Shown here piece after piece: positions 1,293 through 14,249 of a stretch of DNA of 64,000 nucleotides; the first letter of the stretch is position 1; each line of letters begins with the position of its first letter. The notes under the pieces were generated by a model that did not search any database, was not told where the DNA came from, and saw only the letters and a program-made list of their open reading frames with translations. The position numbers were made by a program, and so were the translations under genes. The stretch is from Candidatus Latescibacterota bacterium (GTDB lineage Bacteria; Latescibacterota; UBA2968; UBA8231): positions 960,001 through 1,024,000 of the forward strand of contig CBDETY010000003.1 of NCBI GenBank assembly GCA_965243025.1. The letters are read 5' to 3'.

Positions 1293-2393
1293 ATGCCAAT
1301 GGACACCTTGCGCGTTCTGTTATCGCTCGTAACGCTTCTTTGTTTCCTGGCGAACTTCCCCGCCGCCGCCTCTACCGAAGATGCCGCCCTGTATGCCAAC
1401 GCCTGCGCCGCGTGCCATGGGGCAGATGGACGAGGACGTTCGGCTGAAGACCTCGGCTTCGAGATTGAGCTGCCGGATTTTTCCGATTGTGAATTCGGTT
1501 CCAGGGAACCGGATCCCGACTGGTTTGCGGTGGTTCACGAAGGGGGCCCTGTCCGCGCCTTTGACCGGATGATGCCCGCGTTCGGAGATGCCCTGTCTGA
1601 GGAGGAGATCCACGCCGTCCTGAGGCACGTGCGCACTTTTTGCAGCAACGACGACTGGCCGCGAGGGGAGTTCAACGTACCCAAACCCCTGTTTACGGAG
1701 AAGGCGTTTCCCGAGGACGAGATTTACTTCCAACTGTCTGCAGGTACGGGCGGCCGCAAGGCGGTTGAATTCGAGGTGGTTTACGAAAACCGGTCCGGTC
1801 CCCGGGGGATGGTGGAAGTCTCCGTACCTGTGGGATGGCGCGATTCCCCGCAAGGGGGCGGTTCGAACTACGGCCCCGGTGATATAGGACTCGGCTACAA
1901 GTATGCCTTGTATCACGATCTGGAACGCGGGAACGGGTTGAGCATAGGCGGGGAGATGATTCTGCCCACCGGGGATGAGGACGAGGGTTTCGGGTCGGGG
2001 TCGACCAGACTGGAACCCTACGCGGCCTACGTCCATCTCCTCCCCGGGGACGCCTTCTTCCAGGCCCAAACCTTCGGTGAGTTTGCAGTGGGAGGGGAGG
2101 CTGACGACGAACTCGCACTGCGCGCCCTGCTGGGAAAGACCTGGACTCGGGGAGAGTTTGGCCGGGCCTGGAGTCCCATGGTGGAGGTACTGGTTTCCCG
2201 CGAGTTGGCCTCCGGGTCAGAAGCCAATCTGGATGTGGTCCCTCAAGTCCAGGTGGCTCTGAATACACGTCAACATATACTGCTCAATTCGGGGGTGCGC
2301 CTGCCCCTCGAGAACCGGCAGGACGGGGACCCGCAATTCGTCGCCTATCTCTTATGGGACTGGTTTGACGGAGGTTTCTTCGATGGCTGGTAG
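1293..2393 (+). CDS. Secreted monoheme cytochrome c fused to a putative outer-membrane beta-barrel domain
   Basis: Signal peptide, CAACH heme motif and MMPAFG distal Met. The C-terminal half has alternating beta-strands (GDIGLGYKY, LPTG) and an aromatic terminus. Confidence 0.75.
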   Translation: MPMDTLRVLLSLVTLLCFLANFPAAASTEDAALYANACAACHGADGRGRSAEDLGFEIELPDFSDCEFGSREPDPDWFAVVHEGGPVRAFDRMMPAFGDALSEEEIHAVLRHVRTFCSNDDWPRGEFNVPKPLFTEKAFPEDEIYFQLSAGTGGRKAVEFEVVYENRSGPRGMVEVSVPVGWRDSPQGGGSNYGPGDIGLGYKYALYHDLERGNGLSIGGEMILPTGDEDEGFGSGSTRLEPYAAYVHLLPGDAFFQAQTFGEFAVGGEADDELALRALLGKTWTRGEFGRAWSPMVEVLVSRELASGSEANLDVVPQVQVALNTRQHILLNSGVRLPLENRQDGDPQFVAYLLWDWFDGGFFDGW

Positions 2394-3999
2394 AGGCATC
2401 CTTCGGATGGGTTCCGGGCTGGCAATGGGACAGCTCGGGCTCGTTGCCATGCTTGCGGGGGGCCGGGCTCTGGCTCAACCCGCGGACCATGTCACGTTCG
2501 CGAGTTCGGATCAGTGTATTGCCTGCCACAGCAATCTCACCGATGCCGAGGGAGGGTCCGTGTCCATCGGACATGCCTGGCGCGGCTCCATGATGGCCCA
2601 TTCGGCGCGCGACCCCTACTGGCAGGCATCCGTACGGCGGGAAGTAACCGACCACCCGGAGGCTCAGGCCAGAATCGAGGATACCTGCTCCACCTGCCAT
2701 ATGCCGATGGCGCGGGTCCTTTCAAAGGCGGACGGGGGGCTGGGGAAGGTGTTCGAACACCTCGAGGCTGCCGCACGGGGGGAAGAGAGCGCAACCCTCG
2801 CACTGGATGGGGTGTCCTGCACGACCTGCCATCAGATTCAGGCAGACAATTTCGGGATGGAGTCCAGCTTCGACGGCAACTTTCTGATTCGTTCCGGCGC
2901 CGAACCCCGGATTTTCGGACCGTTCGAGGTGGAAAACGGTCTCCGCATGGTCATGCAGTCGGCAACCGGATTCAGTCCGGACAGCTCCTCTCACATTCAG
3001 GAATCCGAGCTTTGCGCCACATGCCATACCCTTTTCATAACGAGTCTCGATGAAACGGGACAGGAGGTTTCGAAATTCCCCGAGCAGGTTCCTTACCTCG
3101 AATGGCAGCACAGCGATTTCGCCCAAACCAGAAGCTGTCAGGCGTGTCACATGCCGGAGGCTGCGGCCGCGCCGATTTCCTCGGTGCTGGGCGAGTCGAG
3201 AGAAAATGTCTCGCAGCATGTCTTTCGCGGAGGCAACGAGTTCATGCTGCGTCTCCTGGACAAGTACCGGAACGAGCTCCTGGTAACGGCGCCTTCCGCC
3301 GACCTCCAGCGTGCGGCTGCGGCTACCAGGGACCACTTGCAGACTTCCACGGCGGAGCTCGGGCTGCTGGCGGTCGTTCGGGAAAACGACCGCTTCGCCA
3401 TCGACCTGGAAGTGAAAAACCTCGCCGGCCATAAGCTGCCGACAGCCTACCCTTCACGCAGGATGTGGATACACCTTCAAGTGCATGACGAGAATGGGCG
3501 CCTTCTGTTCGAGTCCGGGGCCATGCGTCCCGACGGCAGCATCGAGGGCAATGACAACGACGCGGATCCGGGACGTTTCGAGCCGCATTACCGGGTGATC
3601 GACGACCCCGGGCAGGTGCAGATTTATGAACCCATTATCGCGGACCGCTCGGGGGAGGTCACCACGGGTTTGCTCCGCGCCGTCAAATACGCCAAGGACA
3701 ATCGAGTTCTTCCGATGGGGTTTGACAAGGATTCCGCGGTCGAGGCCACCATGGTGCACGGCAAGGCGCGCGAAGATGCGGACTTCGTTGGGGGCAGCGA
3801 CACGATTCGGTACTTTGTTCCCGCGGAGACCGAGGTTCCAGGGGTAAATGTTCGGGCGAGGCTCATGTTCCAGAGCATCGGCTTCCGGTGGGCGCACAAC
3901 CTATCCGCCTACACGGCAAGGGAAACCGAGCGTTTCGTGGGTTATTTCAGGGAGAATGCTTCGACTTCGGCAACCGTACTGGCAGAAGTCTCAAACTAG
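2365..3999 (+). CDS. Periplasmic pentaheme c-type cytochrome (true start probably 2407 or 2425)
   Basis: Five CXXCH motifs (CIACH, CSTCH, CTTCH, CATCH, CQACH), a signal peptide ending ALA-Q, and a GHKLPTAYP motif common in c554-like multihemes. Confidence 0.88.
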   Translation: MTEVSSMAGRGILRMGSGLAMGQLGLVAMLAGGRALAQPADHVTFASSDQCIACHSNLTDAEGGSVSIGHAWRGSMMAHSARDPYWQASVRREVTDHPEAQARIEDTCSTCHMPMARVLSKADGGLGKVFEHLEAAARGEESATLALDGVSCTTCHQIQADNFGMESSFDGNFLIRSGAEPRIFGPFEVENGLRMVMQSATGFSPDSSSHIQESELCATCHTLFITSLDETGQEVSKFPEQVPYLEWQHSDFAQTRSCQACHMPEAAAAPISSVLGESRENVSQHVFRGGNEFMLRLLDKYRNELLVTAPSADLQRAAAATRDHLQTSTAELGLLAVVRENDRFAIDLEVKNLAGHKLPTAYPSRRMWIHLQVHDENGRLLFESGAMRPDGSIEGNDNDADPGRFEPHYRVIDDPGQVQIYEPIIADRSGEVTTGLLRAVKYAKDNRVLPMGFDKDSAVEATMVHGKAREDADFVGGSDTIRYFVPAETEVPGVNVRARLMFQSIGFRWAHNLSAYTARETERFVGYFRENASTSATVLAEVSN

Positions 4000-4187
4000 G
4001 TTCCATCCCCGGGGAGGGGTGCCGGACCAGTTGAAGCAGCGGCGCAGATTTGCAGGCCAGGCATGGATTTCCACCCGCTTTTCTTCACCATCCGGCGCCG
4101 GAGTGCGGTTTCGGGTGCTCTCGCCGGGGCCGGCCCGGAACCTCGGTGTAGCGGGAAGGTTCCCTAACCTGACGATGGGGAGATAAA

Positions 4188-4883
4188 GTGACGCGCGACA
4201 CTCCGAACCATGGATCCGCGGACTGCGGCCCGATGCCTCCCCTGGCCGAAGACGCGCTCAAGGTGCAGCGCTATTTCCCGACGCTCATTTTTTCCCTGGA
4301 AGTTCCGGACAGCGAGATACTGAACGCCCACCTGATCGAGGCGATCTACGCCGAACGGGAAGGCGACGGAACAGGGGTGCGCAAGTCGAACTTCCCGGAG
4401 CTGGGGAGTTGGCACAGCCACGTCAAACTGCACAGGGACGCCGCGTTTGCGGGATTGGTTCAATACGTCGACTCGGCCTCCGCCATGATGTGCCGCGAGC
4501 TCGGATATCACAGGTCCTATCACCTGAGCATCGGCACCATGTGGTCGATCATCAATCCACCGGGTGGCGTGAACCGGGCTCACATCCATCCCGGCTGCAT
4601 CTGGAGCGGCGTCTACTACGTCCAGGCACCCAGGAATTCGGGTCGAATCGAGTTCATCGATCCGCGCACCCAGAACCTGATGAGTGCCGTCGAATACATC
4701 CCCGACACCAGGCGCCCACGAATCTGCTGGACGAAGGTCCAATACAAGCCCGTGGCCGGAAGAATGCTGATCTTCCCGAGCTGGCTGTACCATAGCGTCG
4801 GTCCGAATCGATCCAGGGCCAGGGGGAAGGACGCCGACCGGATCATCGTGAGCTTCAACCTGTCTCAGGAAAGGCGCAGATAG
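4188..4883 (+). CDS. TIGR02466-like 2OG-Fe(II) oxygenase
   Basis: FPT N-terminal motif, WSIINPPGGVNRAHIHP (HxH), SGVYYV, LIFPSWLYHSV and RIIVSFN. No signal peptide. Confidence 0.85.
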   Translation: MTRDTPNHGSADCGPMPPLAEDALKVQRYFPTLIFSLEVPDSEILNAHLIEAIYAEREGDGTGVRKSNFPELGSWHSHVKLHRDAAFAGLVQYVDSASAMMCRELGYHRSYHLSIGTMWSIINPPGGVNRAHIHPGCIWSGVYYVQAPRNSGRIEFIDPRTQNLMSAVEYIPDTRRPRICWTKVQYKPVAGRMLIFPSWLYHSVGPNRSRARGKDADRIIVSFNLSQERRR

Positions 4884-4910
4884 TTACCTTCACAAGAGAA
4901 GTGAATAGTT

Positions 4911-6644
4911 ATGAAACATCTACGGCGATTTGTTTCTCTCGTGGGCATATTGGCCTTGATGACTTTGGGCCGGCCTTCCTCTCTTTTCGGGCAGAGTGAA
5001 AAAGACACGCCGTTGGGTGACCAGATTCCGCCCCTACTGAGAAGCGAAAGGAGCATCGACTCACGAACCAGCTTCAACATCGGTGCTTCCAGTGATGATG
5101 ACGACGATGACGACGACGATGATGACGACGACGATGATGATGACGACGATGATGATGACGACGATGACGATGATGATGACGACGACGGCGACGAGGGCGA
5201 TGAGGGTGATGAGAACGACGAGGGGGACGAGGGGGACGAGAACGACGAGGGCGACGAGGGCGATGAGGATGACGAGGGCGACGAGAACGACGAGGGCGAT
5301 GAAGACGACGAAGGCGACGAGGACGACGAAGGCGACGAGGACGACGAGGGCGATGAGGACGACGAAGGCGATGAGGATGACGAGGGAGATGAGGATGACG
5401 AGGGCGACGAGGGGGACGAGAACGACGAGGGCGACGAGAACGACGAAGGCGATGAGGACGACGAGGGGGATGAGGGCGATGAGGACGACGGTGACGAGGG
5501 GGATGAGGGGGATGAGGATGACGAGGGCGATGAGGACGACGAGGGTGACGAGGGGGACGAGAACGACGAGGGCGACGAGGGGGATGAGGACGATGAGAAC
5601 GACGAGGGGGATGAGGACGACGAGGGGGATGAGGATGACGAGGGCGATGAGGATGACGAGGGCGATGAGGGCGACGAGGACGAGGGCGACGAGGGGGACG
5701 AGGACGACGAGGGGGATGAGGATGACGAGGGGGATGAGGACGACGAGGGCGACGAGGGGGATGAAGGCGACGAGAACGACGAGGGCGATGAGGGCGACGA
5801 GGACGACGGCGACGAGGGGGATGAGGGCGACGAGGGGGATGAAGACGACGAGGGAGATGAGGACGACGAGGGGGATGAGGACGACGAGAACGACGAGGGC
5901 GACGAGGGCGACGAGAACGACGAAGGGGATGAGGGGGACGAGAACGACGAGGGCGATGAGGGTGACGAGGACGACGGCGACGAGGGCGATGAGGGCGACG
6001 AGGGGGATGAGGGCGACGAGAACGACGAGGGTGATGAGGGTGACGAGGGGGACGAGGGGGACGAGGACGACGAGGGAGACGAGGGGGACGAGAACGACGA
6101 GGGGGACGAGGACACCAACGGAAGCGCAGGGACGTCAGAAAGCAGGACATTCGCGCCGCTCAGTGGGGATTTCGATGGCGATGGAAAAGTCGGTTTTTCC
6201 GATTTCTTCCTCCTTGCCGATGCCATGGGCAGCAGCGATCCAACCTTTGACCTCGATGGCAGCGGCCTGGTCGATTTCTCGGACTTCTTTCTGTTTGCCG
6301 ACTCTTTCCCACCGTCGCAGCGGGCCAAGTTGCTGGAGCTGGCGCGGGAATCGATCGGGCTGCCCGTTGGCCCCGAGCTGTACCAGAACGCACCCAATCC
6401 CTTCAACAGCGAGACCGTTCTTTCCTACATCCTCCGGGAGCCTGGTCCTGCCCGCCTGGAGATCCTCACGGTAACCGGGCAACGGGTGAAGGTCTTGAGC
6501 CAGGGTGATCAGAAGGCGGGTTACCACCGGATTTCCTGGGACGGCCTGGATGACGCAGGCCAACCGTTGGCAAGCGGCGTCTACCTGTACAGACTGGCGA
6601 CGACCGAGGGGGCATTGACCCGCAAGCTGGTTCTGCTGCGCTGA
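4911..6644 (+). CDS. Secreted hyper-acidic Asp/Glu-repeat protein with EF-hand/dockerin-like pair and FlgD-Ig C-terminal domain
   Basis: Signal peptide, then 31 Asp, then ~309 aa of (G/D/N)DE triplets. Followed by GDFDGDGKVGFSDF and DLDGSGLVDFSDF, then QNAPNPFNSET...GVYLYRL...RKLVLLR. Confidence 0.88.
   Translation: MKHLRRFVSLVGILALMTLGRPSSLFGQSEKDTPLGDQIPPLLRSERSIDSRTSFNIGASSDDDDDDDDDDDDDDDDDDDDDDDDDDDDDDDGDEGDEGDENDEGDEGDENDEGDEGDEDDEGDENDEGDEDDEGDEDDEGDEDDEGDEDDEGDEDDEGDEDDEGDEGDENDEGDENDEGDEDDEGDEGDEDDGDEGDEGDEDDEGDEDDEGDEGDENDEGDEGDEDDENDEGDEDDEGDEDDEGDEDDEGDEGDEDEGDEGDEDDEGDEDDEGDEDDEGDEGDEGDENDEGDEGDEDDGDEGDEGDEGDEDDEGDEDDEGDEDDENDEGDEGDENDEGDEGDENDEGDEGDEDDGDEGDEGDEGDEGDENDEGDEGDEGDEGDEDDEGDEGDENDEGDEDTNGSAGTSESRTFAPLSGDFDGDGKVGFSDFFLLADAMGSSDPTFDLDGSGLVDFSDFFLFADSFPPSQRAKLLELARESIGLPVGPELYQNAPNPFNSETVLSYILREPGPARLEILTVTGQRVKVLSQGDQKAGYHRISWDGLDDAGQPLASGVYLYRLATTEGALTRKLVLLR
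5094..6113 (+). repeat. Low-complexity coding repeat: (GAY)31 followed by 9-bp period (GGN/GAY/AAC)-GAY-GAR units
   Basis: Seen directly. Synonymous third-position variation runs throughout and the frame stays intact. Confidence 0.95.
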
Positions 6645-6659
6645 CCGGGCCGGTCCCGA

Positions 6660-8072
6660 ATGGCTTCGGTTCTAAGGAGCCGCCCCGTAGTCCTCGCGGA
6701 GGTACTGACCCGGCAGGTCGACGCCTCCCCCATCGTGTTTTTCAGGGTCCTCTTCGGCATCCTCATGGCCGTAGAGGTCATTCGATACTGGGCCCACGGC
6801 CGCATATCGCGTTACTACATCGAGCCGGCGTTCCTCTTTTCCTTCGTGGAATGGATCAAGCCGGTCGGTGTCGGCATGTATCCGGTTTTCATCCTCATGG
6901 GAGCTGCCGCGCTTTTCCTGGCGATCGGATACCACTACCGGGCGGCGTCGATCCTGTACTTCGTCCTCTACACCTATGCGTTCCTTCTCGACAAGGCGCA
7001 GTACAACAACCACTACTACCTGATCTGTCTGCTGGCCTTTCTTTTCGCGGTGACGAATGCCGACCGGGGATTTTCAATCGACGCCGTGCGGCGCAGGCTT
7101 CCATCCCTGGTTCCCGCCTGGCAGGTCTACCTGTTTCGCCTGCAGGTCTGCGTCCTGTTTTTCTACGCAGGGGTGGCCAAGATAAACGCCGACTGGCTGT
7201 CGGGTGAACCGGTCAGAACCTGGCTGGCTGCCAGGTCGGACTATTTCCTGATCGGACCTCTCCTGCTGAAGGAGTGGTTCGTTTTTTTGTACGCCTACGC
7301 GGGGATGGTATTCGACCTGGGGATTGGGTTTGCGCTGTTATGGTCCAAGACCCGGGGGGCCGGTTTCGTGCTGCTCCTCGGGTTCAATCTCCTGAACAAG
7401 TGGTTCTACGACATCGGCATCTTTCCGTACCTGGCGATGGCGGCGTTCGTCCTCTTCATGGACGGTACCAGTATCAGCGGCCTGTTCGGTCGCTGGGTCC
7501 GAACCCGCGCCGTGGGCGGCGCCGTGGTGCGCGACCTGCTGGGGGAGGGGGCGGAAACCGGAGCAAACCCCCGCAAACCAACACCCTGGACGGAACTGCT
7601 CTCCAGGTTGGGCGGTTTCGGAATCCGGGCCAAGGCGGTTCTGGTATCCGGGTTCGTTCTCGTTCAGCTCCTTGCGCCGCTTCGCCATTTCGCCATCCCG
7701 GGCCATGTGGCCTGGACGGAGGAGGGCCATCTGTTTTCGTGGAGGATGAAGCTGCGAGACAAGAGGGCAGAGGAGATTATCTTCTATACCAAAGATTCTC
7801 GTTCAGGAAACATCAACGAGCTGCCGACGGATGGCCTGACCAGAAGGCAGAAAAGAAAGATGTCCACCAGGCCGCACATGATTGTTCAATACGCCAGGCA
7901 CCTTTCCGAGGATCTCAGGAAAAGCGGCTTCGAGAACGCCCCCGTTTACGTCGGGACCTCGGTTTCCCTGAACAGCCGCGATCCCAGACCCCTGATCGAC
8001 GAGAGTGCCGACCTTGCGAAAGTGCAATACCGCTCATTTGGGCATAACGGCTGGATAACCACCCTCGAATAG
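6660..8072 (+). CDS. HTTM-domain vitamin K-dependent gamma-carboxylase-like membrane protein
   Basis: FRVLFG, LLDKAQYNNHYYL, FFYAGVAKINADWLSG, FNLLNKWFYDIGIFPY and WTEEGHLFSWRMKL correspond to conserved GGCX blocks as recalled (LLDKTSWNNHSYL, YFIAGVKKLDADW, FHCMNSQLFSIGMF, WTNGLYGYSWDMM). Multiple TM helices are present. Confidence 0.9.
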   Translation: MASVLRSRPVVLAEVLTRQVDASPIVFFRVLFGILMAVEVIRYWAHGRISRYYIEPAFLFSFVEWIKPVGVGMYPVFILMGAAALFLAIGYHYRAASILYFVLYTYAFLLDKAQYNNHYYLICLLAFLFAVTNADRGFSIDAVRRRLPSLVPAWQVYLFRLQVCVLFFYAGVAKINADWLSGEPVRTWLAARSDYFLIGPLLLKEWFVFLYAYAGMVFDLGIGFALLWSKTRGAGFVLLLGFNLLNKWFYDIGIFPYLAMAAFVLFMDGTSISGLFGRWVRTRAVGGAVVRDLLGEGAETGANPRKPTPWTELLSRLGGFGIRAKAVLVSGFVLVQLLAPLRHFAIPGHVAWTEEGHLFSWRMKLRDKRAEEIIFYTKDSRSGNINELPTDGLTRRQKRKMSTRPHMIVQYARHLSEDLRKSGFENAPVYVGTSVSLNSRDPRPLIDESADLAKVQYRSFGHNGWITTLE

Positions 8073-8207
8073 TTGCCCGCGGAGAGGGTCTCGGTCGGAA
8101 TCCGATTACCGGGTGGACTTCTGGAACTACACGTCGAGGCGCGACTCAAGGTGTACGGGACACCCCTTGGAACCGGCTCCTGCCATCTTTTGCCCGCCTT
8201 TTCGGTC

Positions 8208-8699
8208 TCAAAGTGAAGACTTCGGGGACACGCGGATTCCCGAGGCCACCATTTCGAACTTCGGGGCCTCCGCAAGCCCGGGCGGCTGCGCGGAGGATTC
8301 CGCCCGATAGTGCTCCTCCGCGCCCGGATCAGCCGCCTGCAACAAGCCATGGACCGTGGCCGAACGCCCGCTGATCTCCCGCGGCACTGTATAGGCGTAA
8401 CTTCCGTCCTCGTGGCGCGCTACGTGCACGCGCAATCCCGCTGCGGTATCCAGGGCGCGCAGCACGAGCCAGCAGCCCGCATTCTGGCATACCTCATGGA
8501 CGGTACCTGTAACGGTAACCGGCCGGTCGAGATACCTTTCGGGCTCGGCCAGGACAGCCTCTACCGGCAAGGCTTCCTGCGGCATGCCGGCTGTGCCGAA
8601 GAGATCGTCCTCCGGGGTGTCCAGCCGTGCGCAAGCGGAAACCAAAAGGAGAACGAGGCTCCTCAAAGGCATGGTTTGAACTGTTGCAGCGTGTTTCAT
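8208..8699 (-). CDS. Lipoprotein, DUF4920-like OB-fold protein
   Basis: Lipobox LVSAC and the motif VTVTGTVHEVCQNAGCW. Confidence 0.7.
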   Translation of the reverse strand: MKHAATVQTMPLRSLVLLLVSACARLDTPEDDLFGTAGMPQEALPVEAVLAEPERYLDRPVTVTGTVHEVCQNAGCWLVLRALDTAAGLRVHVARHEDGSYAYTVPREISGRSATVHGLLQAADPGAEEHYRAESSAQPPGLAEAPKFEMVASGIRVSPKSSL

Positions 8700-11600
8700 G
8701 ATTTCAGGCGATGCTCACGTGTTGGCAATTCTTGCCCTGTCAGGGTCCTCTTCCCGTCCCTCATGTCCACCAAGCTGTACCTGCTGACGGAACACTCCGA
8801 GAACAACCGGGCTGGCCGAAGATGAGCGGGGGGTGACATCGCCGCAGGCCAGATAGCTGGTTTGCAGTGATTCCTCTCTGGCAGGCCCGACCGACACATC
8901 TACACAAAAGTCGAACTCCCCAAAGATATCAATTTCAGCCCCCGACCCAGGATGAATCCCCGGTTGGTGCGGGGCCTGGTGGCGCACCAGGCTTCGGACT
9001 TCCGGGACTGGAGGCTGTCGGTCATTGCGCTTCGACCGCGGCCGTCCTCGGAGCTCGGCACATTTTGGTGGTTTCAGGCCACGGACAGGATTACCGTAAT
9101 CAGGATTACCGTAATAGGGTAAGCTTGCGCGTCTGAACGCTCCCCTCGGTCGACAGCCGGTAGAGATACACCCCACTTGCCAGGGAGCGGCCATTGTCGC
9201 CACGTCCATCCCAGTGCACGCGGTGGACGCCGGCCTTTTTCGGTCCCTGGTGCAGCACCGCCACCCGTTGCCCGGTCAGGGAGAATATCTCCAGCCGCAC
9301 GGGACCCGGCTCCAGCAGAAACCAGGAAATGACGGTCTCGCTGTTGAAGGGGTTGGGCCAGTTCTGCTGCAACTGCGTTTCACGGGGCAACCCGATCAAG
9401 TCATGGGCCAGGGCCACCAGCTTCGCCCGCCCCGACGGGTTGAAGGCGTCGATGAACTTGAAGAAGTCGACGAAGTCGACGGTGCCGCTGCCGTCGAGGT
9501 CGAACCGGGCATCGGTGCCCCCATAGGCGTCGATGAACAGGAAGAAGTCGGCAAAATCGGTCTTGCCGTCGCCGTTGAAATCGGTCGTGGCCTGCGCCGG
9601 GGTTCCCCGGGCCTTGGAGGGCATGTTGTACGAGTAGATCTTCTTGTCGGACAGGTCGGTGACCCACATCGTCTCGCCGTCCGACCAGATGCCGAGAGTG
9701 ACGTGGGTCAAAGTTGGATGCAACGCACTGAAGTCCCTTGACGAGTCCCGGGACCCGGTCGCCAAGTCGTAGGCAAACAGCCTGAGGAACAATGAATCCC
9801 CGACCCACAGAGTCACGCCGTCCGACCAGATGCCGAATGCTCTCTGGTTGCCGTCCGAGCGCGGCGTATTGATATCCTTGGCAGCATCTCTCGCTTTCGT
9901 AACCAGGTCGTAGGCGAAGACCTTGTCATCCTTGTTGTCGTGGTTGACAACCCACATGGTCGTGCCGTCCGACCAGATGCCCCGGGGACCGTCGTTTCCG
10001 GCAGCGCTCAGAGTACCGAAGTCCTTGGACGCGTCTCTTGCCTTGGTGGAAAGGCTGTATGCATATATCCTGGCGTCTGTCCCATCTGCCACCCACATGG
10101 TCGTGCCGTTCGACCAGATGCCCCGGGGATCGTCGTTGCCGGCCGCCTTCAAAGTACTGAAGTCCCTGGCTGCATCCCTTGCCTTGGTGGACAGATTGTA
10201 TGCGAATATCTTGGACTCGGGGGCGTTGTTGTAGTTGGCCACCCACATGGTCGTGCCATCCGACCAGAGACCGGCAGGATGATTGTTCTCCGCGACCAAG
10301 GTGTTGAAGTCATCGACGGCCTTCCAACCGAAGGGTGTCGTCACGCCCCGGCCAATTGCGACGGTATACGCCTTCGTAGTCTGCCCGTCGCTCGCGGTGG
10401 CCCTGATTGTGACTTCGTTTCTGCCCTCTGACAGCGACACCGAGTAGGAAGATCCGCTTGAGACGGAAATGCCGCCAATGTCGATGGTGGAGCCGGCATC
10501 AGCCGCCGTTGCGGTAATGCTGACCTGAGGTACTGAATTGGCGACGCCGACGTGGTAGGTGGTCACGTCGGCGTCGAAGCCTGTAATGTCCACGGGACTG
10601 ACCGTGAGTGCTTTCAGGAGTGGTTCCGGTTCGGCGTCGGGCACCGGGGTCAGTCCCCAGCATTCGAGGCTGCCGTCTGTCCGCACCCCGCAACTATGCG
10701 CCCATCCGGCGCTCACTTGGCTGAAGGCCCCGCTCGGTGCGTCCCTGCGGCCGTCCAGATTGCTCCCCCAACAGGCTACGCCACCGTCGGTCTCCACTCC
10801 GCAACTATGCCAGATTCCCGCGCTCACCTGGCTGAAGTTGCCGCTCGGTGCGTCCCTCTGACCATAGCGGTTCCCCCCCCAACAGACCACCCTACCGTCC
10901 GTCCGCACCCCGCAACTATGGTACGATCTCGCGCTCACTTGGCTGAAGTTCCCGCTTGGTGCGTCCGTCGTCTGGTCAACGTCGTCACGGCCCCAGCATT
11001 CGACGCTGCCGTCCGTTCGCAGCCCGCAACTATGTGACGTGCCCGCGCTGATCTGACTGAAACGGCCGCTCGGAGCGTCCGCCTGACCATACTGGTCACT
11101 CCCCCAACAGACCACGCCACCGTCCGTCCGCAGCCCGCAACTATGGGCCGCGCCCGCGCTCACCAGGCTGAAGCTCCCGCTCGGAGCGTCCGTTCGGCCA
11201 TCGTCGGCCCGCCCCCAACAGAGTACGGTGCCGTCCCTTCGCACGCCGCAACTATGATAGGTGCCAGCGCTGACATCGCTGAAGCTCCCGCTCGGAGCGT
11301 CCGACTGCCCAAAGTCATCGAGCCCGCTGTTCCCCCAGCAGACGACCCTGCCGTCCGTCCGCAGCCCGCAATTATGTGACGTGCCCGCGCTGACCTGACT
11401 GAAGCTCCCGCTCGGAGCGTAGGGTGAAGGGGGCGGCGGAGGGGGCTCTGCGGCCGCCGGCATGTTGTATGCGTATATCTTTGCGTCCGTCTCGTCGGCC
11501 ACCCACATGGTCATCCCGTCGGACCAGATGCCCCGGGCCGCCTCGTTTCCGGCGGCGCCAAGGGTAGCGAAGTCCCTGGAGGAATCCCTAGCCCCGGAGG

Positions 11601-13053
11601 CCAGGTAGTATGCGTACAGCCTGCTTTGGGCCCAGTTGGCGACCCAGATGGTAGTGCTGTCAGACCAGATGTATTCAAACGCGCCGGAGCCGGGACCTGT
11701 GACGTAATCGAAGTCCTTGCCGGAGTCGCGAGCCCTCGTGAGCAGGTCGTAGGCATAGATGTGGTTGTCCTCATCGTCCACGACCCACATCGTGCTGTCG
11801 TCCGACCAGATTCCGGCGGGATCCTCGTTCCCGGCCGCCTTCAGCCCGTCGAAGTCCTTGGAGGCGTCTCGCGCCCAAGTCGAAAGGCTGTAGGCGTACA
11901 ACTTGGCGTCCTCGGAGTCGGAGACCCACATGGTCGTGCCGTCCGACCAGAGGCCCTCGGGACTGTTGTTGCCGGCAGTGGTCGGCGTGTCCAGGTCCTT
12001 GGCCGCATCACGAGCTGTCGTGGCCATGCTGTAGGCATAGATCTTGGCGTCCTCGGAGTCGGAGACCCACATGGTCGTGCCGTCCGACCAGAGGCCGCCC
12101 GGAGAGCTGTTGCCCGCGGCGTCGAGGGTGTTGAAGTCCCCGACGGCGTTCCAGCCAAAGGTTGTAGTCACACTCCGCACTACGGTGACGGTATAGACTT
12201 TGGTCGTCCGTCCGTCGCCAGACCTGACCGATATCCTGATGTCGTTTGGTCCTTCAGCTAGCGAAACCGAGTGGGAAGAGCCGCTTGATGCGGCGCTTCC
12301 ATCGATGTCGATGGTCACCCCCGGGGTTGTGGCATTGGCCACTACCGTGACCTCTGTGACCTCGTTGGGGACACCCACGTGATAGGCGGTCACCTCGCTG
12401 TTGAAGGGGGCGATGCCCCCGGGACTGACGGTCAGTCCGCTCAGCGTGGCGTCCGAATATTCGGGCATGTTGTAAGAGAAGATCTTGAATGTGGCGGATT
12501 CTTCTCCATACGAAGCCAAGTCACTGTCGTCCCAATCATGATCATCCATTTCCACTGTCGGGGATTCTGGGAATGGCCATATTCTGCGTTTCACTCCATT
12601 AACGACCCACATGGTTGTCCCGTCGGACCAGATGCCCCAAGGGGATGTATTGCCGGCAGCCACTAAGGTGTTGAAATCTCTGCTTGCGTCACGAGCCTTC
12701 GTGGCCAAATTGTAGGCGTAAATCTTAGCGTAGTCTCCGTACACCGCCCACATGGTCGTGCCGTCCGTCCAGATCCCTGCTATACCTCTTGTACTTGAGC
12801 CTTTGTCAGCAGAAAGATCCAAATCAAAAAGATGCTGCTTCGTGGCCAAACTGTAAGCGCGAATTATCCAAGTCGCCATTTCGACGACATACAAGACTCC
12901 ATTGCTGATCGCTATGTCGCCCTGATATGGTGTGATGCTCCCGTCGCTGATGGGATAGCTGACGAGGGTGATTTCCTTGCTCCAATCCCTCGCGTAGTTG
13001 GACAGCTTGTAGGCAAATAGATCTCCCGAGGACAACTCGGAGACATACTGAGG

Positions 13054-13938
13054 TTACCCCGATTTCACGGACAGTTTTCCGTTTGGATTTATACCCCTTG
13101 ATAAATGATACCTCTCGTAGTTGATGGGAGATCGTTGTCCCAGGGCCGAGTGCCGCCGATGGGGGTTGTACCAGCCTTCCAGGTATTCGAAAACCGTACG
13201 CTGGGCTTGCGACTGGGTAGCAAACCGATGACGATCCAGCAGCTCCCTTTCCAAGGTGGCGAAAAAGCTTTCGCACAGAGCATTGTCGAAGCAGTCACCG
13301 ACCGATCCCATCGACGGACGTACCCCGGCCTGGCGACAGCGCTTCCCGAAGGCCAGGGCCGTATACTGACTGCCGTGGTCGGAGTGGTGAATCACTTTCT
13401 TGGGACGGCGCCGGTGCAGGGCCATGTCAAGGGCGTCCAGCACCAACTGCGTACGCATATGGTTCGCCATGGCCCAGCCCACCACTCGGCGGCTCCAGGC
13501 GTCCATGACCACGCTCAGATACAAAAACCCCGACCTCGTGGGAATGTAGGTGAGATCGGCAACCCACAGGCGATTCGGGCCGGAGACCGAAAACACCCGC
13601 TTGACCAGGTCGGAGGCGACCCGGCCCTGCCGGCCGCGACGGGTGGTGGAGAGGCGGCGGCGGGCGCATACCCCGCGCACCCCGAGCTCAAGCATCAATC
13701 GGGCGATGCGCTTGCGACCGATGGCTTGGCCCTCCTCGGCCAGTTCGGCCCGGATCCTCGGCGCTCCATAAGTGCCCCGGGAGTGTTGGTGGATCTGCTC
13801 GACACGTGCCTTGAGCACGGCATCGGCCCGGGCGCGACCCGAAGGCGGGCGTTTCAACCAGGCGTAGTAGCCGCTGGGGGAGACCTTCAGCACGCGGCAC
13901 ATCGTCAGCACCGGAAAGTCGGCCTGGTGCGCTCTCAT
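13054..13938 (-). CDS. IS3 transposase OrfB (rve integrase, DDE)
   Basis: WVADLTY, HHSDHGSQY, DNALCESFFATLE and YNPHRRHSALG. Overlaps orfA by ATGA. Confidence 0.95.
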   Translation of the reverse strand: MRAHQADFPVLTMCRVLKVSPSGYYAWLKRPPSGRARADAVLKARVEQIHQHSRGTYGAPRIRAELAEEGQAIGRKRIARLMLELGVRGVCARRRLSTTRRGRQGRVASDLVKRVFSVSGPNRLWVADLTYIPTRSGFLYLSVVMDAWSRRVVGWAMANHMRTQLVLDALDMALHRRRPKKVIHHSDHGSQYTALAFGKRCRQAGVRPSMGSVGDCFDNALCESFFATLERELLDRHRFATQSQAQRTVFEYLEGWYNPHRRHSALGQRSPINYERYHLSRGINPNGKLSVKSG

Positions 13939-14249
13939 GAACTCGTAGACGGGCCGGACTCCGAGTCGGCCTCGCGAGCGAACCAGGCCGTGGCTTTTGC
14001 CAGGATCTCCCGTTCGATACGCAGTTGCTTGTTCTCACGGCGAAGGCGCCGCAATTCCTCCTGCTCCGGACGGGAGGGGCCGTCGCGGCGCACCCCCTCA
14101 TCGCGTTCGGCCTGGATCACCCAGTTGCGGATCGTCTGCCCGGACGGCTCGAATTCCTTGGCCAGCGACTCCGGACTACGACCCGCCCGTACCAGTTCCA
14201 CCATCTGTTGCCGGAATTCGGGCGGATAAGGGGAATGGGATTTCGGCAT
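13935..14249 (-). CDS. IS3 transposase OrfA (HTH)
   Basis: YPPEFRQQMVELVRAG...ELRRLRRENKQLRIEREILAKATAWFA. Confidence 0.93.
   Translation of the reverse strand: MPKSHSPYPPEFRQQMVELVRAGRSPESLAKEFEPSGQTIRNWVIQAERDEGVRRDGPSRPEQEELRRLRRENKQLRIEREILAKATAWFAREADSESGPSTSS

Follow-up and report, generated by a model that had tools for sequence, protein, structure and literature searches.

A candidate maturation cassette around an exported poly-acidic protein in a Latescibacterota bacterium, with genes for a 2-oxoglutarate oxygenase and a relative of the vitamin K-dependent carboxylase

Organization of the locus

The stretch analysed here (the window) comprises 64,000 nucleotides of the genome of a Candidatus Latescibacterota bacterium (assembly GCA_965243025.1, contig CBDETY010000003.1, positions 960,001 to 1,024,000 of the forward strand). 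Three consecutive genes in the window encode a 2-oxoglutarate (2OG)-Fe(II) oxygenase (g1), an exported poly-acidic repeat protein (g2) and a bacterial relative of the vitamin K-dependent gamma-carboxylase (VKGC) GGCX (g3). The coordinates of the open reading frames (ORFs; Table 1) agree with the initial annotation, which was made from the sequence alone and described three co-oriented genes with gaps of only 27 bp (g1–g2) and 15 bp (g2–g3). A scan of positions 3800–8500 was uninformative; it gave no promoter-like site and five weak terminator-like sites, all within g3, with 3.1 expected. An antisense ORF of 513 amino acids, rich in Ser and Pro (4865–6406), was rejected as a gene, as it is a shadow of the repeat and the + frame carries a signal peptide and a sorting domain. 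The genes at all comparison loci described below are our own longest-ORF calls, and the organism labels of the metagenome-assembled genomes may be wrong.

Table 1 Features of the g1–g2–g3 locus (positions within the window; aa, amino acids; HMM, hidden Markov model; T9SS, type IX secretion system; TRF, Tandem Repeats Finder)
Feature	Positions	Strand	Basis
g1: TIGR02466/PF13759 2OG-Fe(II) oxygenase, 231 aa	4188..4883	+	Family HMM matches; signal peptide not recognized by eye; no second copy in the genome
g2: exported poly-acidic repeat protein, 577 aa (D178, E111)	4911..6644	+	Sequence reading; sole such ORF in the genome
g2 signal peptide, aa 1–27	4911..4991	+	By eye; N-terminus conserved in 13 orthologues (alignment A3)
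g2 conserved leader, aa 28–61 (KDTPLGDQ..PLLRSE, then SID.RTSF..GASS)	4992..5093	+	Alignment A3
g2 poly-Asp run, 31 D, aa 62–92	5094..5186	+	Sequence reading
g2 (x-Asp-Glu)101 tract, x = Gly/Asp/Asn, aa 93–401	5187..6113	+	TRF and unit count
g2 dockerin/EF-hand-like DxDGDG loop pair, aa 420–466	6168..6308	+	Motif by eye
g2 T9SS type A C-terminal sorting domain, aa 495–574	6393..6632	+	TIGR04183, 31.7 bits, cut-off 23
g3: bacterial VKGC-type protein, 470 aa	6660..8072	+	HTTM and VKGC lumenal domain HMMs, phmmer, Foldseek
g3 HTTM domain	6711–7463	+	PF05090
g3 lumenal domain (periplasmic by homology)	7635–8066	+	PF22777

The acidic exported protein

The N-terminus of g2, which resembles a signal peptide by eye, is followed by a 34-residue leader and by an acidic tract of 340 residues (aa 62–401) composed of D160, E101, G66 and N13. 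After the poly-Asp run there are 101 units ending in Glu (GDE 63 times, DDE 21 times, NDE 13 times, DDGDE three times and DE once), and the distance from one Glu to the next is exactly three residues in 96 of 100 intervals. The earlier description of an exported middle protein with about 100 regularly spaced Glu residues is thereby borne out. The repeat DNA forms a period-18/27 array at 5094–6113 according to TRF, with only 76–77% matches; such divergence argues against recent expansion or slippage and suggests that the composition is maintained at the protein level. The g2 gene is the sole ORF of the 6.8-Mb genome to reach at least 65% Asp/Glu over 40 residues, the thresholds for 'acidic' having been chosen after inspection of the window.

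The only Pfam match of g2 was to Collagen (32.9 bits) and reflects the triplet periodicity. A collagen-like protein was rejected, because 63 of the 101 units are GDE and 34 are DDE or NDE without Gly, so that the Gly-X-Y pattern is interrupted. No match of g2 to a domain of the gamma-carboxyglutamate (Gla) type was found in Pfam, and its leader is a family of its own and not a GGCX-type propeptide. Compared with the Gla-domain substrates of animals, g2 thus differs in having neither such a domain nor such a propeptide and in containing hundreds of acidic residues with Asp as the common denominator.

The C-terminal tail module of g2 is common to 123 ORFs of the genome, and the T9SS machinery is represented by SprA (470 bits) and two PorU genes (615–621 bits, cut-off 420). 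With a TIGR04183 domain above the cut-off and this machinery in the genome, g2 resembles T9SS type A cargo; it differs in that the tail is not constant across its family, since the orthologues of genus g22 stop after the dockerin-like loops and the partner at locus L031 has a different C-terminus.

The oxygenase and its linkage to the acidic gene

The identification of the first gene product as a 2OG oxygenase proved sound, the matches to TIGR02466 (194.8 bits, cut-off 62.5) and PF13759 (83.2 bits, cut-off 27) both lying above the cut-offs. Across 26 sequences, H132, H134, H202 and R218 do not vary; they were ascribed to the metal site by eye. The structural model of g1 (pLDDT 81) is nearest to 3bvc and 2rg4, uncharacterised structural-genomics proteins of its own family, and then to protein prolyl 4-hydroxylases (12–16% identity, TM about 0.5, Foldseek E about 1e-7 to 1e-6). 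The latter group, which includes PHD2/EGLN1, the Pseudomonas putida P4H acting on EF-Tu and viral/algal collagen P4H, has a similar fold and hydroxylates proteins, but the identity is low and g1 has His134 at the place of the Asp of their HxD motif (alignment by eye). No paralogue of g1 was found in its own genome. As no signal peptide was recognized by eye, g1 would act before export.

Orthologues of g1 with 82–100% identity are present in 14 of 168 Latescibacterota genomes. In every one of the 14, the product of the next gene downstream is acidic and has the same signal peptide, the KDTPLGDQ..PLLRSE leader, a poly-Asp run and (x-Asp-Glu)n repeats; in G083 the contig stops inside the acidic repeat. 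The leader motif KDTPLGDQ occurs in all 12 oxygenase-linked rows of alignment A3 and is replaced in the single oxygenase-less row (G151). A tie of the second leader motif, SID.RTSF, to the presence of the carboxylase was rejected, since A3 revealed no correlation. No acidic gene adjoins the distant TIGR02466 member of G170.

Some further features of the acidic gene and its surroundings were observed in the related genomes. In G133 (L226, about 7640–8800) the acidic gene stops and the T9SS tail continues in another frame, owing either to an assembly error or to a frameshift. The gene that comes after the acidic gene in genus g22 encodes a conserved secreted protein of about 634 amino acids, 80–93% identical between genomes (L220 3876–5975; L222 9121–11247 and 11587–13491; L225 3518–5650; L228 2781–4685), for which neither a Pfam family nor a homologue in the window genome was found; G091 has two copies of this gene, next to an 83-aa carboxylase remnant. 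In genus g14, a di-haem oxidoreductase/peroxidase gene (PF06537, 373 bits) is convergent to the cassette (L198 11622–13016, L221 4616–6007), and it is present both where the carboxylase gene ends the cassette (G151) and where the acidic gene does so (G147 and others).

The VKGC-type protein and its linkage to the acidic gene

The third gene product contains both Pfam domains of GGCX, HTTM (PF05090, 246.1 bits, cut-off 27.7, aa 18–268) and the VKGC lumenal domain (PF22777, 132.9 bits, aa 326–469). Human GGCX chains were its sole match in the PDB (phmmer, E 5e-44), and the 16 best Foldseek matches of its model (pLDDT 70.6) were all GGCX (E 7e-19 to 2e-10), the next one having an E of 0.16. The residues N159/H160, K218, W223, D263, F299 and M401 of GGCX have their equivalents in N117/H118, K174, W179, D219, F255 and M363 of g3, which confirms that g3 keeps GGCX motifs as first noted. 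All these equivalents are invariant in a 26-sequence alignment of the subclade of g3 and nearly so in 155 homologues; F255 and the Asn-His pair are kept in all 155, the Asn-His column being biased by the search pattern. In GGCX, Lys218 is described as the catalytic base acting with Trp223 and Asp263, Phe299 as part of the CO2 pocket and Asn159/His160 as carboxylate-binding (PMC12647623, available text). K174, W179, D219, F255 and H357 lie outside the peptide patterns used for fetching the loci and are free of that bias.

The subclade is distinct. In a search of 5.8 billion proteins, the identities to g3 ranged from 49 to 94% and then dropped to 44% for the general bacterial family, and the seven subclade rows in a FastTree phylogeny of 156 VKGC-type proteins formed one clade with an SH-like support of 100. 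(The tree omitted seven loci with a best ORF below 380 aa, including the frame-shifted G001 copy, as well as the duplicate records L143 and L145.) The lumenal domain is more basic in the subclade (net charge +3 to +8 vs a mean of 0.3, sd 4.7, in the other homologues) and carries an RQKRKM..RPHM stretch where the others have RPDM, a minor point in favour of an acidic substrate. One subclade carboxylase (P0018, 546 aa) has a C-terminal extension that opens with a (DG)5-like tract and continues with a beta-rich domain, and it could represent the enzyme fused to a short acidic tract.

Among species-representative genomes, 334 bacterial VKGC relatives were matched by the two peptide patterns. The surrounding DNA was read for eight intact or near-intact subclade loci, namely the window, G001, G127, G131, G151, G169/L031, G168/L032 and G292/L240. 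An acidic-repeat ORF lies directly upstream on the same strand in all eight, in three lineages. The carboxylases share with g3 80–86% identity in G001, 68% in G127 (split over two contig ends), 69% in G131, 70% in G151 (a one-contig genome), 61% in L031 (record labelled Aminicenantes), and 54 and 53% in L032 and G292, respectively, both from Rhodothermales. Where assembled, the N-termini of the partners are signal-peptide-like or hydrophobic; the short-read contigs L029–L031 stop inside the repeat. Apart from the signal peptide and the acidic tract, everything in the partners varies: the middle part is absent or is LRR-like (leucine-rich repeat), fn3 or Ig-like, and the tail is of the T9SS type or another. 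Five further homologues with 36–44% identity to g3 (L059, L094, L096, L121 and L176) adjoin genes for secreted poly-Asp proteins and stand on separate branches, so that the poly-Asp-neighbour label needs six changes on the VKGC tree. The expectation that homologues elsewhere would neighbour acidic secreted ORFs was therefore confirmed within the subclade and at these five distant loci.

The enrichment of acidic genes is local. ORFs with at least 65% Asp/Glu in 40 residues numbered 12 within 2.5 kb of a carboxylase gene (612 kb of flank) vs two in the 875 kb farther away (161 loci); six of the 12 belong to the subclade, and the one at L109 is a D/E/A-rich tail and not poly-Asp. Metagenome contigs supplied 80 VKGC loci, all with at most 44% identity to g3 and none from the subclade, which serve as background only. 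No acidic neighbour was found beside the g3 paralogue of the same genome (31% identity) or beside the third HTTM gene of the genome. The paralogue (L003 8501–9904, − strand, corresponding to G000:C3:412500–413969) lies between genes for an FG-GAP repeat protein and a PIN-domain protein; compared with its surroundings, its product has visibly more Lys, Phe and Ile, and the gene may have been acquired horizontally. A further triad is suggested by two protein records, P0003 (83% identity to g3) and P0129 (87% to g1), which give the same length for the longest contig (362,799 bp).

Evidence on the activity of g3

A number of observations weigh against the carboxylation of g2 by g3. The equivalent of Lys217 of GGCX is Ala173 in g3 (Ala in 152 of 155 bacterial homologues), and that of Tyr395 is His357 (His in 153 of 155). 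In GGCX, Lys217 couples epoxidation to the Glu substrate and Tyr395 hydrogen-bonds the Glu carboxylate (PMC12647623, available text), and the Leptospira homologues, which are without Lys217 like g3, show no substrate activation according to the accessible part of a preprint (10.1101/2025.02.09.637231). The similarity of g3 to GGCX stops near human residue 504; as the second propeptide-binding lobe of GGCX (PBD-2) extends from D508 to V604 (same preprint, accessible part), g3 (470 aa vs 758 aa of GGCX) is without this lobe, the arch and the C-terminal domain. No VKOR gene (PF07884) was found in the 96%-complete genome of the organism, with matches obtained in control genomes, and the stoichiometric carboxylation of more than 100 residues would therefore consume quinone unless another reductase exists. 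The conservation of the catalytic residues is family-wide and not specific to the subclade, and it is partly a matter of construction in the large set for N117/H118 and M363/K364, which lie in the locus-fetching peptide patterns. The subclade relatives are not independent, five of the eight loci coming from one family, and poly-Asp neighbours are rare among the distant homologues (five of about 150 loci). The G001 carboxylase reads in three frames with one stop, in G126 only a 115-aa carboxylase remnant adjoins the oxygenase gene and the start of the acidic gene, and G091 keeps only the 83-aa remnant. Finally, no carboxylase gene was found in the 14–15 kb read at the oxygenase–acidic loci of G094, G147, G152, G136, G087, G133, G130 and G086, and the same eight genomes gave no genome-wide match to g3 at an E of 1e-60 or better. 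The carboxylase thus appears to be dispensable for the acidic protein.

Some of these points would suit an envelope redox enzyme. The Leptospira orthologue is reportedly an epoxidase without protein carboxylase activity on the test substrates, and we know of no acidic partner for it. By analogy, g3 might be a menaquinol epoxidase or a similar envelope enzyme with no substrate relation to g2; the adjacency would then stem from shared regulation or envelope function, and g2 would be unmodified or modified by the oxygenase only. The absence of Lys217, VKOR and the second propeptide-binding lobe, the oxygenase–acidic pairs without a carboxylase in at least eight genomes, the decayed carboxylase copies elsewhere and the different conserved neighbours of other VKGC subfamilies (in three other Rhodothermales homologues, lipoproteins and an 840–860-aa protein) all speak for this explanation. 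We nevertheless consider it unlikely, because an acidic partner accompanies the carboxylase at all eight intact subclade loci even though the repeat type, the middle domains and the C-terminal tail of that partner all change, because the tree shows five further independent poly-Asp adjacencies and because the genome contains no second ORF like g2.

It is also conceivable that g3 does modify g2 but by a non-carboxylating chemistry that uses the base generated from quinol and O2, as might be imagined from the SDP toxin and linaridin pathways with their HTTM proteins. HTTM proteins are found in peptide-maturation clusters with unexplained chemistry (PMC9927463, available text), and the bacterial family departs from GGCX not only at Lys217 and Tyr395 but also at Met402 (Lys364 in g3; Lys in 155 of 155 homologues). 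The Phe of the CO2 pocket (F255) is, however, kept in all 155 homologues together with the carboxylate-binding Asn-His pair (the latter search-biased), g3, as a VKGC-type protein, has a lumenal domain that SdpB-/linaridin-type HTTM proteins do not have, and the single bacterial relative with a characterised function, MloH, is a carboxylase in the available parts of the sources cited below. We therefore regard a non-carboxylating modification as distinctly improbable. By sequence comparison, g3 keeps the carboxylase sites for quinol deprotonation and for CO2 and is without the substrate-docking and coupling apparatus of GGCX. A complex prediction of g3 (alignment A1) with g2 residues 27–110 (A3) gave a score of 0.01; having been made with no control pairs, it counts neither way.

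Asp and Glu as possible target residues

The partners of the carboxylase differ in their repeats according to the presence of the oxygenase. Partners linked only to the carboxylase consist of Asp repeats, DDDDDG in G151 (D154, E7), DDDDDGA in L031 and DDDDDG(DG) in L032 and G292 (L240). The whole genomes G151, G168 and G169 yielded no TIGR02466 gene, nor did the 16 kb read of G292. Every oxygenase-linked partner has Glu-bearing x-D-E repeats and the KDTPLGDQ leader, and Glu repeats are present in the partners in the window, G001, G127 and G131. The Glu repeats and the leader thus track the oxygenase, which suggests that both belong with it. An Asp run is all that the carboxylase-linked partners, the five distant ones among them, have in common, so that Asp and not Glu would be the conserved target if the carboxylase acts on its partners; the sample behind this argument is small and contains non-independent relatives. 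Asp is probably the main target of g3, giving beta-carboxy-Asp, a malonate-type bidentate ligand, and Glu would be at most a secondary target.

The initial annotation had proposed a Gla-rich or beta-carboxy-Asp-rich product. The first of the two options, in which g3 would turn the approximately 100 regularly spaced Glu residues of g2 into gamma-carboxy-Glu, is suggested by the 101 Glu residues at period 3, by the largely conserved Glu-binding and catalytic residues of GGCX in g3 and by the Glu repeats of the four partners just named. Yet orthologous carboxylases with 53–70% identity are paired with Asp-only repeats in G151, L031, L032 and L240, and Glu repeats co-occur with the oxygenase and not with the carboxylase, including in the eight carboxylase-less genomes. 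Moreover, Tyr395, which contacts the Glu carboxylate in GGCX, is replaced by His, and Lys217, the second lobe and VKOR are missing. Conversion to Gla is consequently the least probable of the alternatives considered here, and the Asp option fits better.

Proposed maturation of the acidic protein

The initial annotation had further described the locus as an enzyme–substrate operon. What stands is a cassette built around an acidic exported protein; what does not stand is the view of the three genes as one obligate unit, since at least eight genomes have the oxygenase–acidic pair only and G151, G168, G169 and G292 have the acidic–carboxylase pair without the oxygenase. Each enzyme can occur beside the acidic gene without the other, which makes the acidic gene the hub. 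The gene arrangements support a functional module centred on the acidic protein. That g2 is a substrate of at least one of g1 and g3 is, on this comparison, a fairly probable assumption. More tentatively, at somewhat below an even chance, we favour the view that g3 modifies the Asp-rich tracts of the exported g2 and that the locus is a modular maturation cassette for a surface-displayed polyanion.

In the maturation pathway that we propose, g2 would be hydroxylated after its translation and before export by the cytoplasmic g1, with the leader and/or the Glu-bearing repeats as the mark for this enzyme. Such a role of g1 is suggested by the linkage in 14 of 14 genomes and by its co-variation with the leader and the repeat type. 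The protein would then be exported by Sec (signal peptide by eye), its long poly-Asp/(Gly/Asp/Asn)-Asp-Glu tract being presumably disordered. The third protein would be an inner-membrane enzyme with the active site facing the periplasm, a topology predicted by homology to GGCX. It would use menaquinol and O2 to generate a strong base, which would deprotonate the side-chain CH2 next to the carboxylate, and CO2 would be added. The conserved catalytic residues, the topology by homology and the repeated linkage are the reasons for placing the action of g3 on the Asp-rich tract of g2. Enzymes of the g1 and g3 types both require O2. Two MqnA/MqnD-type genes (PF02621) above the cut-off indicate menaquinone synthesis, the search among menaquinone pathway genes having been limited to PF02621. 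In the last step, g2 would be passed to the T9SS and fixed on the cell surface, as suggested by its sorting domain and the SprA/PorU machinery, and the product would be a coat with a very high capacity for binding Ca2+ or other metals.

Several known systems resemble parts of this pathway. Like the substrates of GGCX, the candidate substrate g2 is exported, acidic and of a Ca-binding type, and it would encounter its enzyme at the non-cytoplasmic face of the membrane. The Asp-directed chemistry proposed for g3 has a parallel in MloH, the VKGC orthologue of the Streptomyces malonomycin pathway, which carboxylates an Asp-derived unit to a malonate-type group (PMC12647623, PMC12186529, 10.64898/2026.08.19.745780; available parts); the two are likened here by description and not by sequence. 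MloH is described there as acting on a hybrid polyketide synthase–non-ribosomal peptide synthetase (PKS–NRPS) intermediate, whereas g2 would be a ribosomal, Sec-exported substrate, and no PKS/NRPS genes were found in the neighbourhood of the cassette in the window. For g1, an analogy is offered by SmaO, an Fe(II)/2OG-dependent Asp beta-hydroxylase which acts on a DGDG motif of a ribosomally synthesised and post-translationally modified peptide and works with an HD-domain enzyme to produce aminomalonate (PMC12186529, available part). Both would be dedicated 2OG oxygenases directed to Asp next to Gly in a ribosomal peptide, with GDE/DDE/NDE as the possible sites of g1; in difference from the SmaO system as described in that part of the source, no HD-domain gene was seen at the g1–g3 locus. 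A further parallel to g2 itself is found in molluscs.

The mollusc proteins Aspein and Asprich are secreted, contain long poly-Asp tracts punctuated by Gly or Ser and are thought to control CaCO3 formation. Their tracts resemble the DDDDDG repeats of G151, L032 and L240, but the proteins are eukaryotic and unrelated in sequence, and we know of no carboxylase or oxygenase dedicated to them. Bacterial VKGC relatives are widespread; to our knowledge, a reaction has been assigned to only one, which acts on a small molecule, and no protein substrate is known for any of them. Our literature search, which did not extend to subscription journals and supplements, found no report tying bacterial VKGC homologues or TIGR02466 proteins to poly-Asp proteins.

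Surroundings of the cassette

The cassette is surrounded by genes for cytochromes, a DUF4920 protein and T9SS cargo and by an insertion sequence (IS) element. Directly upstream of g1 (1293–3999, + strand) lies a gene for a 366-aa fusion of a cytochrome c with an outer-membrane barrel of the Phenol_MetA_deg type, which is overlapped by a gene for a multihaem cytochrome of 544 aa with MtrC/MtrF-like and c7 matches. The same multihaem cytochrome gene also precedes the oxygenase gene in G127; the adjacency is not kept at the other 11 oxygenase loci. On the opposite side, a gene for a DUF4920 lipoprotein-like product (8208–8699, − strand) is convergent with g3; it is not beside the cassette in G151. 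It is followed by a gene for a 1309-aa T9SS cargo protein (9106–13035, − strand) with seven RCC1 repeats, two cadherin-like domains and many blades of the 'WSDGTTMWV' type. The cargo protein ends in the same dockerin-like and sorting-domain module as g2, and its dockerin-like part matches NF041540 dockerin_GC below the cut-off. Many of the 123 ORFs with the tail module cluster at about 817 to 1040 kb of contig C3. An IS3-type element (13054–14249, − strand) consists of an HTH_Tnp_1 ORF (104 aa) and an overlapping rve integrase ORF (294 aa).

Significance

The boldest form of the proposal extends beyond the single locus. It states that bacterial VKGC enzymes carboxylate ribosomal proteins after translation, converting the poly-Asp of exported surface proteins into runs of beta-carboxy-Asp with malonate side chains, and that in the lineage studied here a dedicated 2OG oxygenase would in addition hydroxylate the GDE repeats of the same protein. 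We consider this form rather unlikely as a whole. If true, prokaryotes would have an equivalent of the chemistry that gives vertebrate Ca-binding proteins their Gla and beta-hydroxy-Asp. Bacterial VKGC homologues would gain their first class of natural protein substrates, and an enzymatic way of forming beta-carboxy-Asp within proteins would be known.

The locus provides short candidate substrates that can be synthesised, that is, poly-Asp or GDE peptides with a defined leader, and the genomes with the carboxylase only, the oxygenase only or both represent natural 'knock-out' comparisons. Confirmation of the modification would mean that quinol-driven CO2 fixation onto proteins predates animals and would add a new protein modification to those of bacteria. 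For the organisms themselves, a super-chelating coat might serve Ca or metal capture or the control of mineral formation, and the cassette would, if confirmed, explain how some uncultured bacteria make extremely strong cation-binding surfaces.

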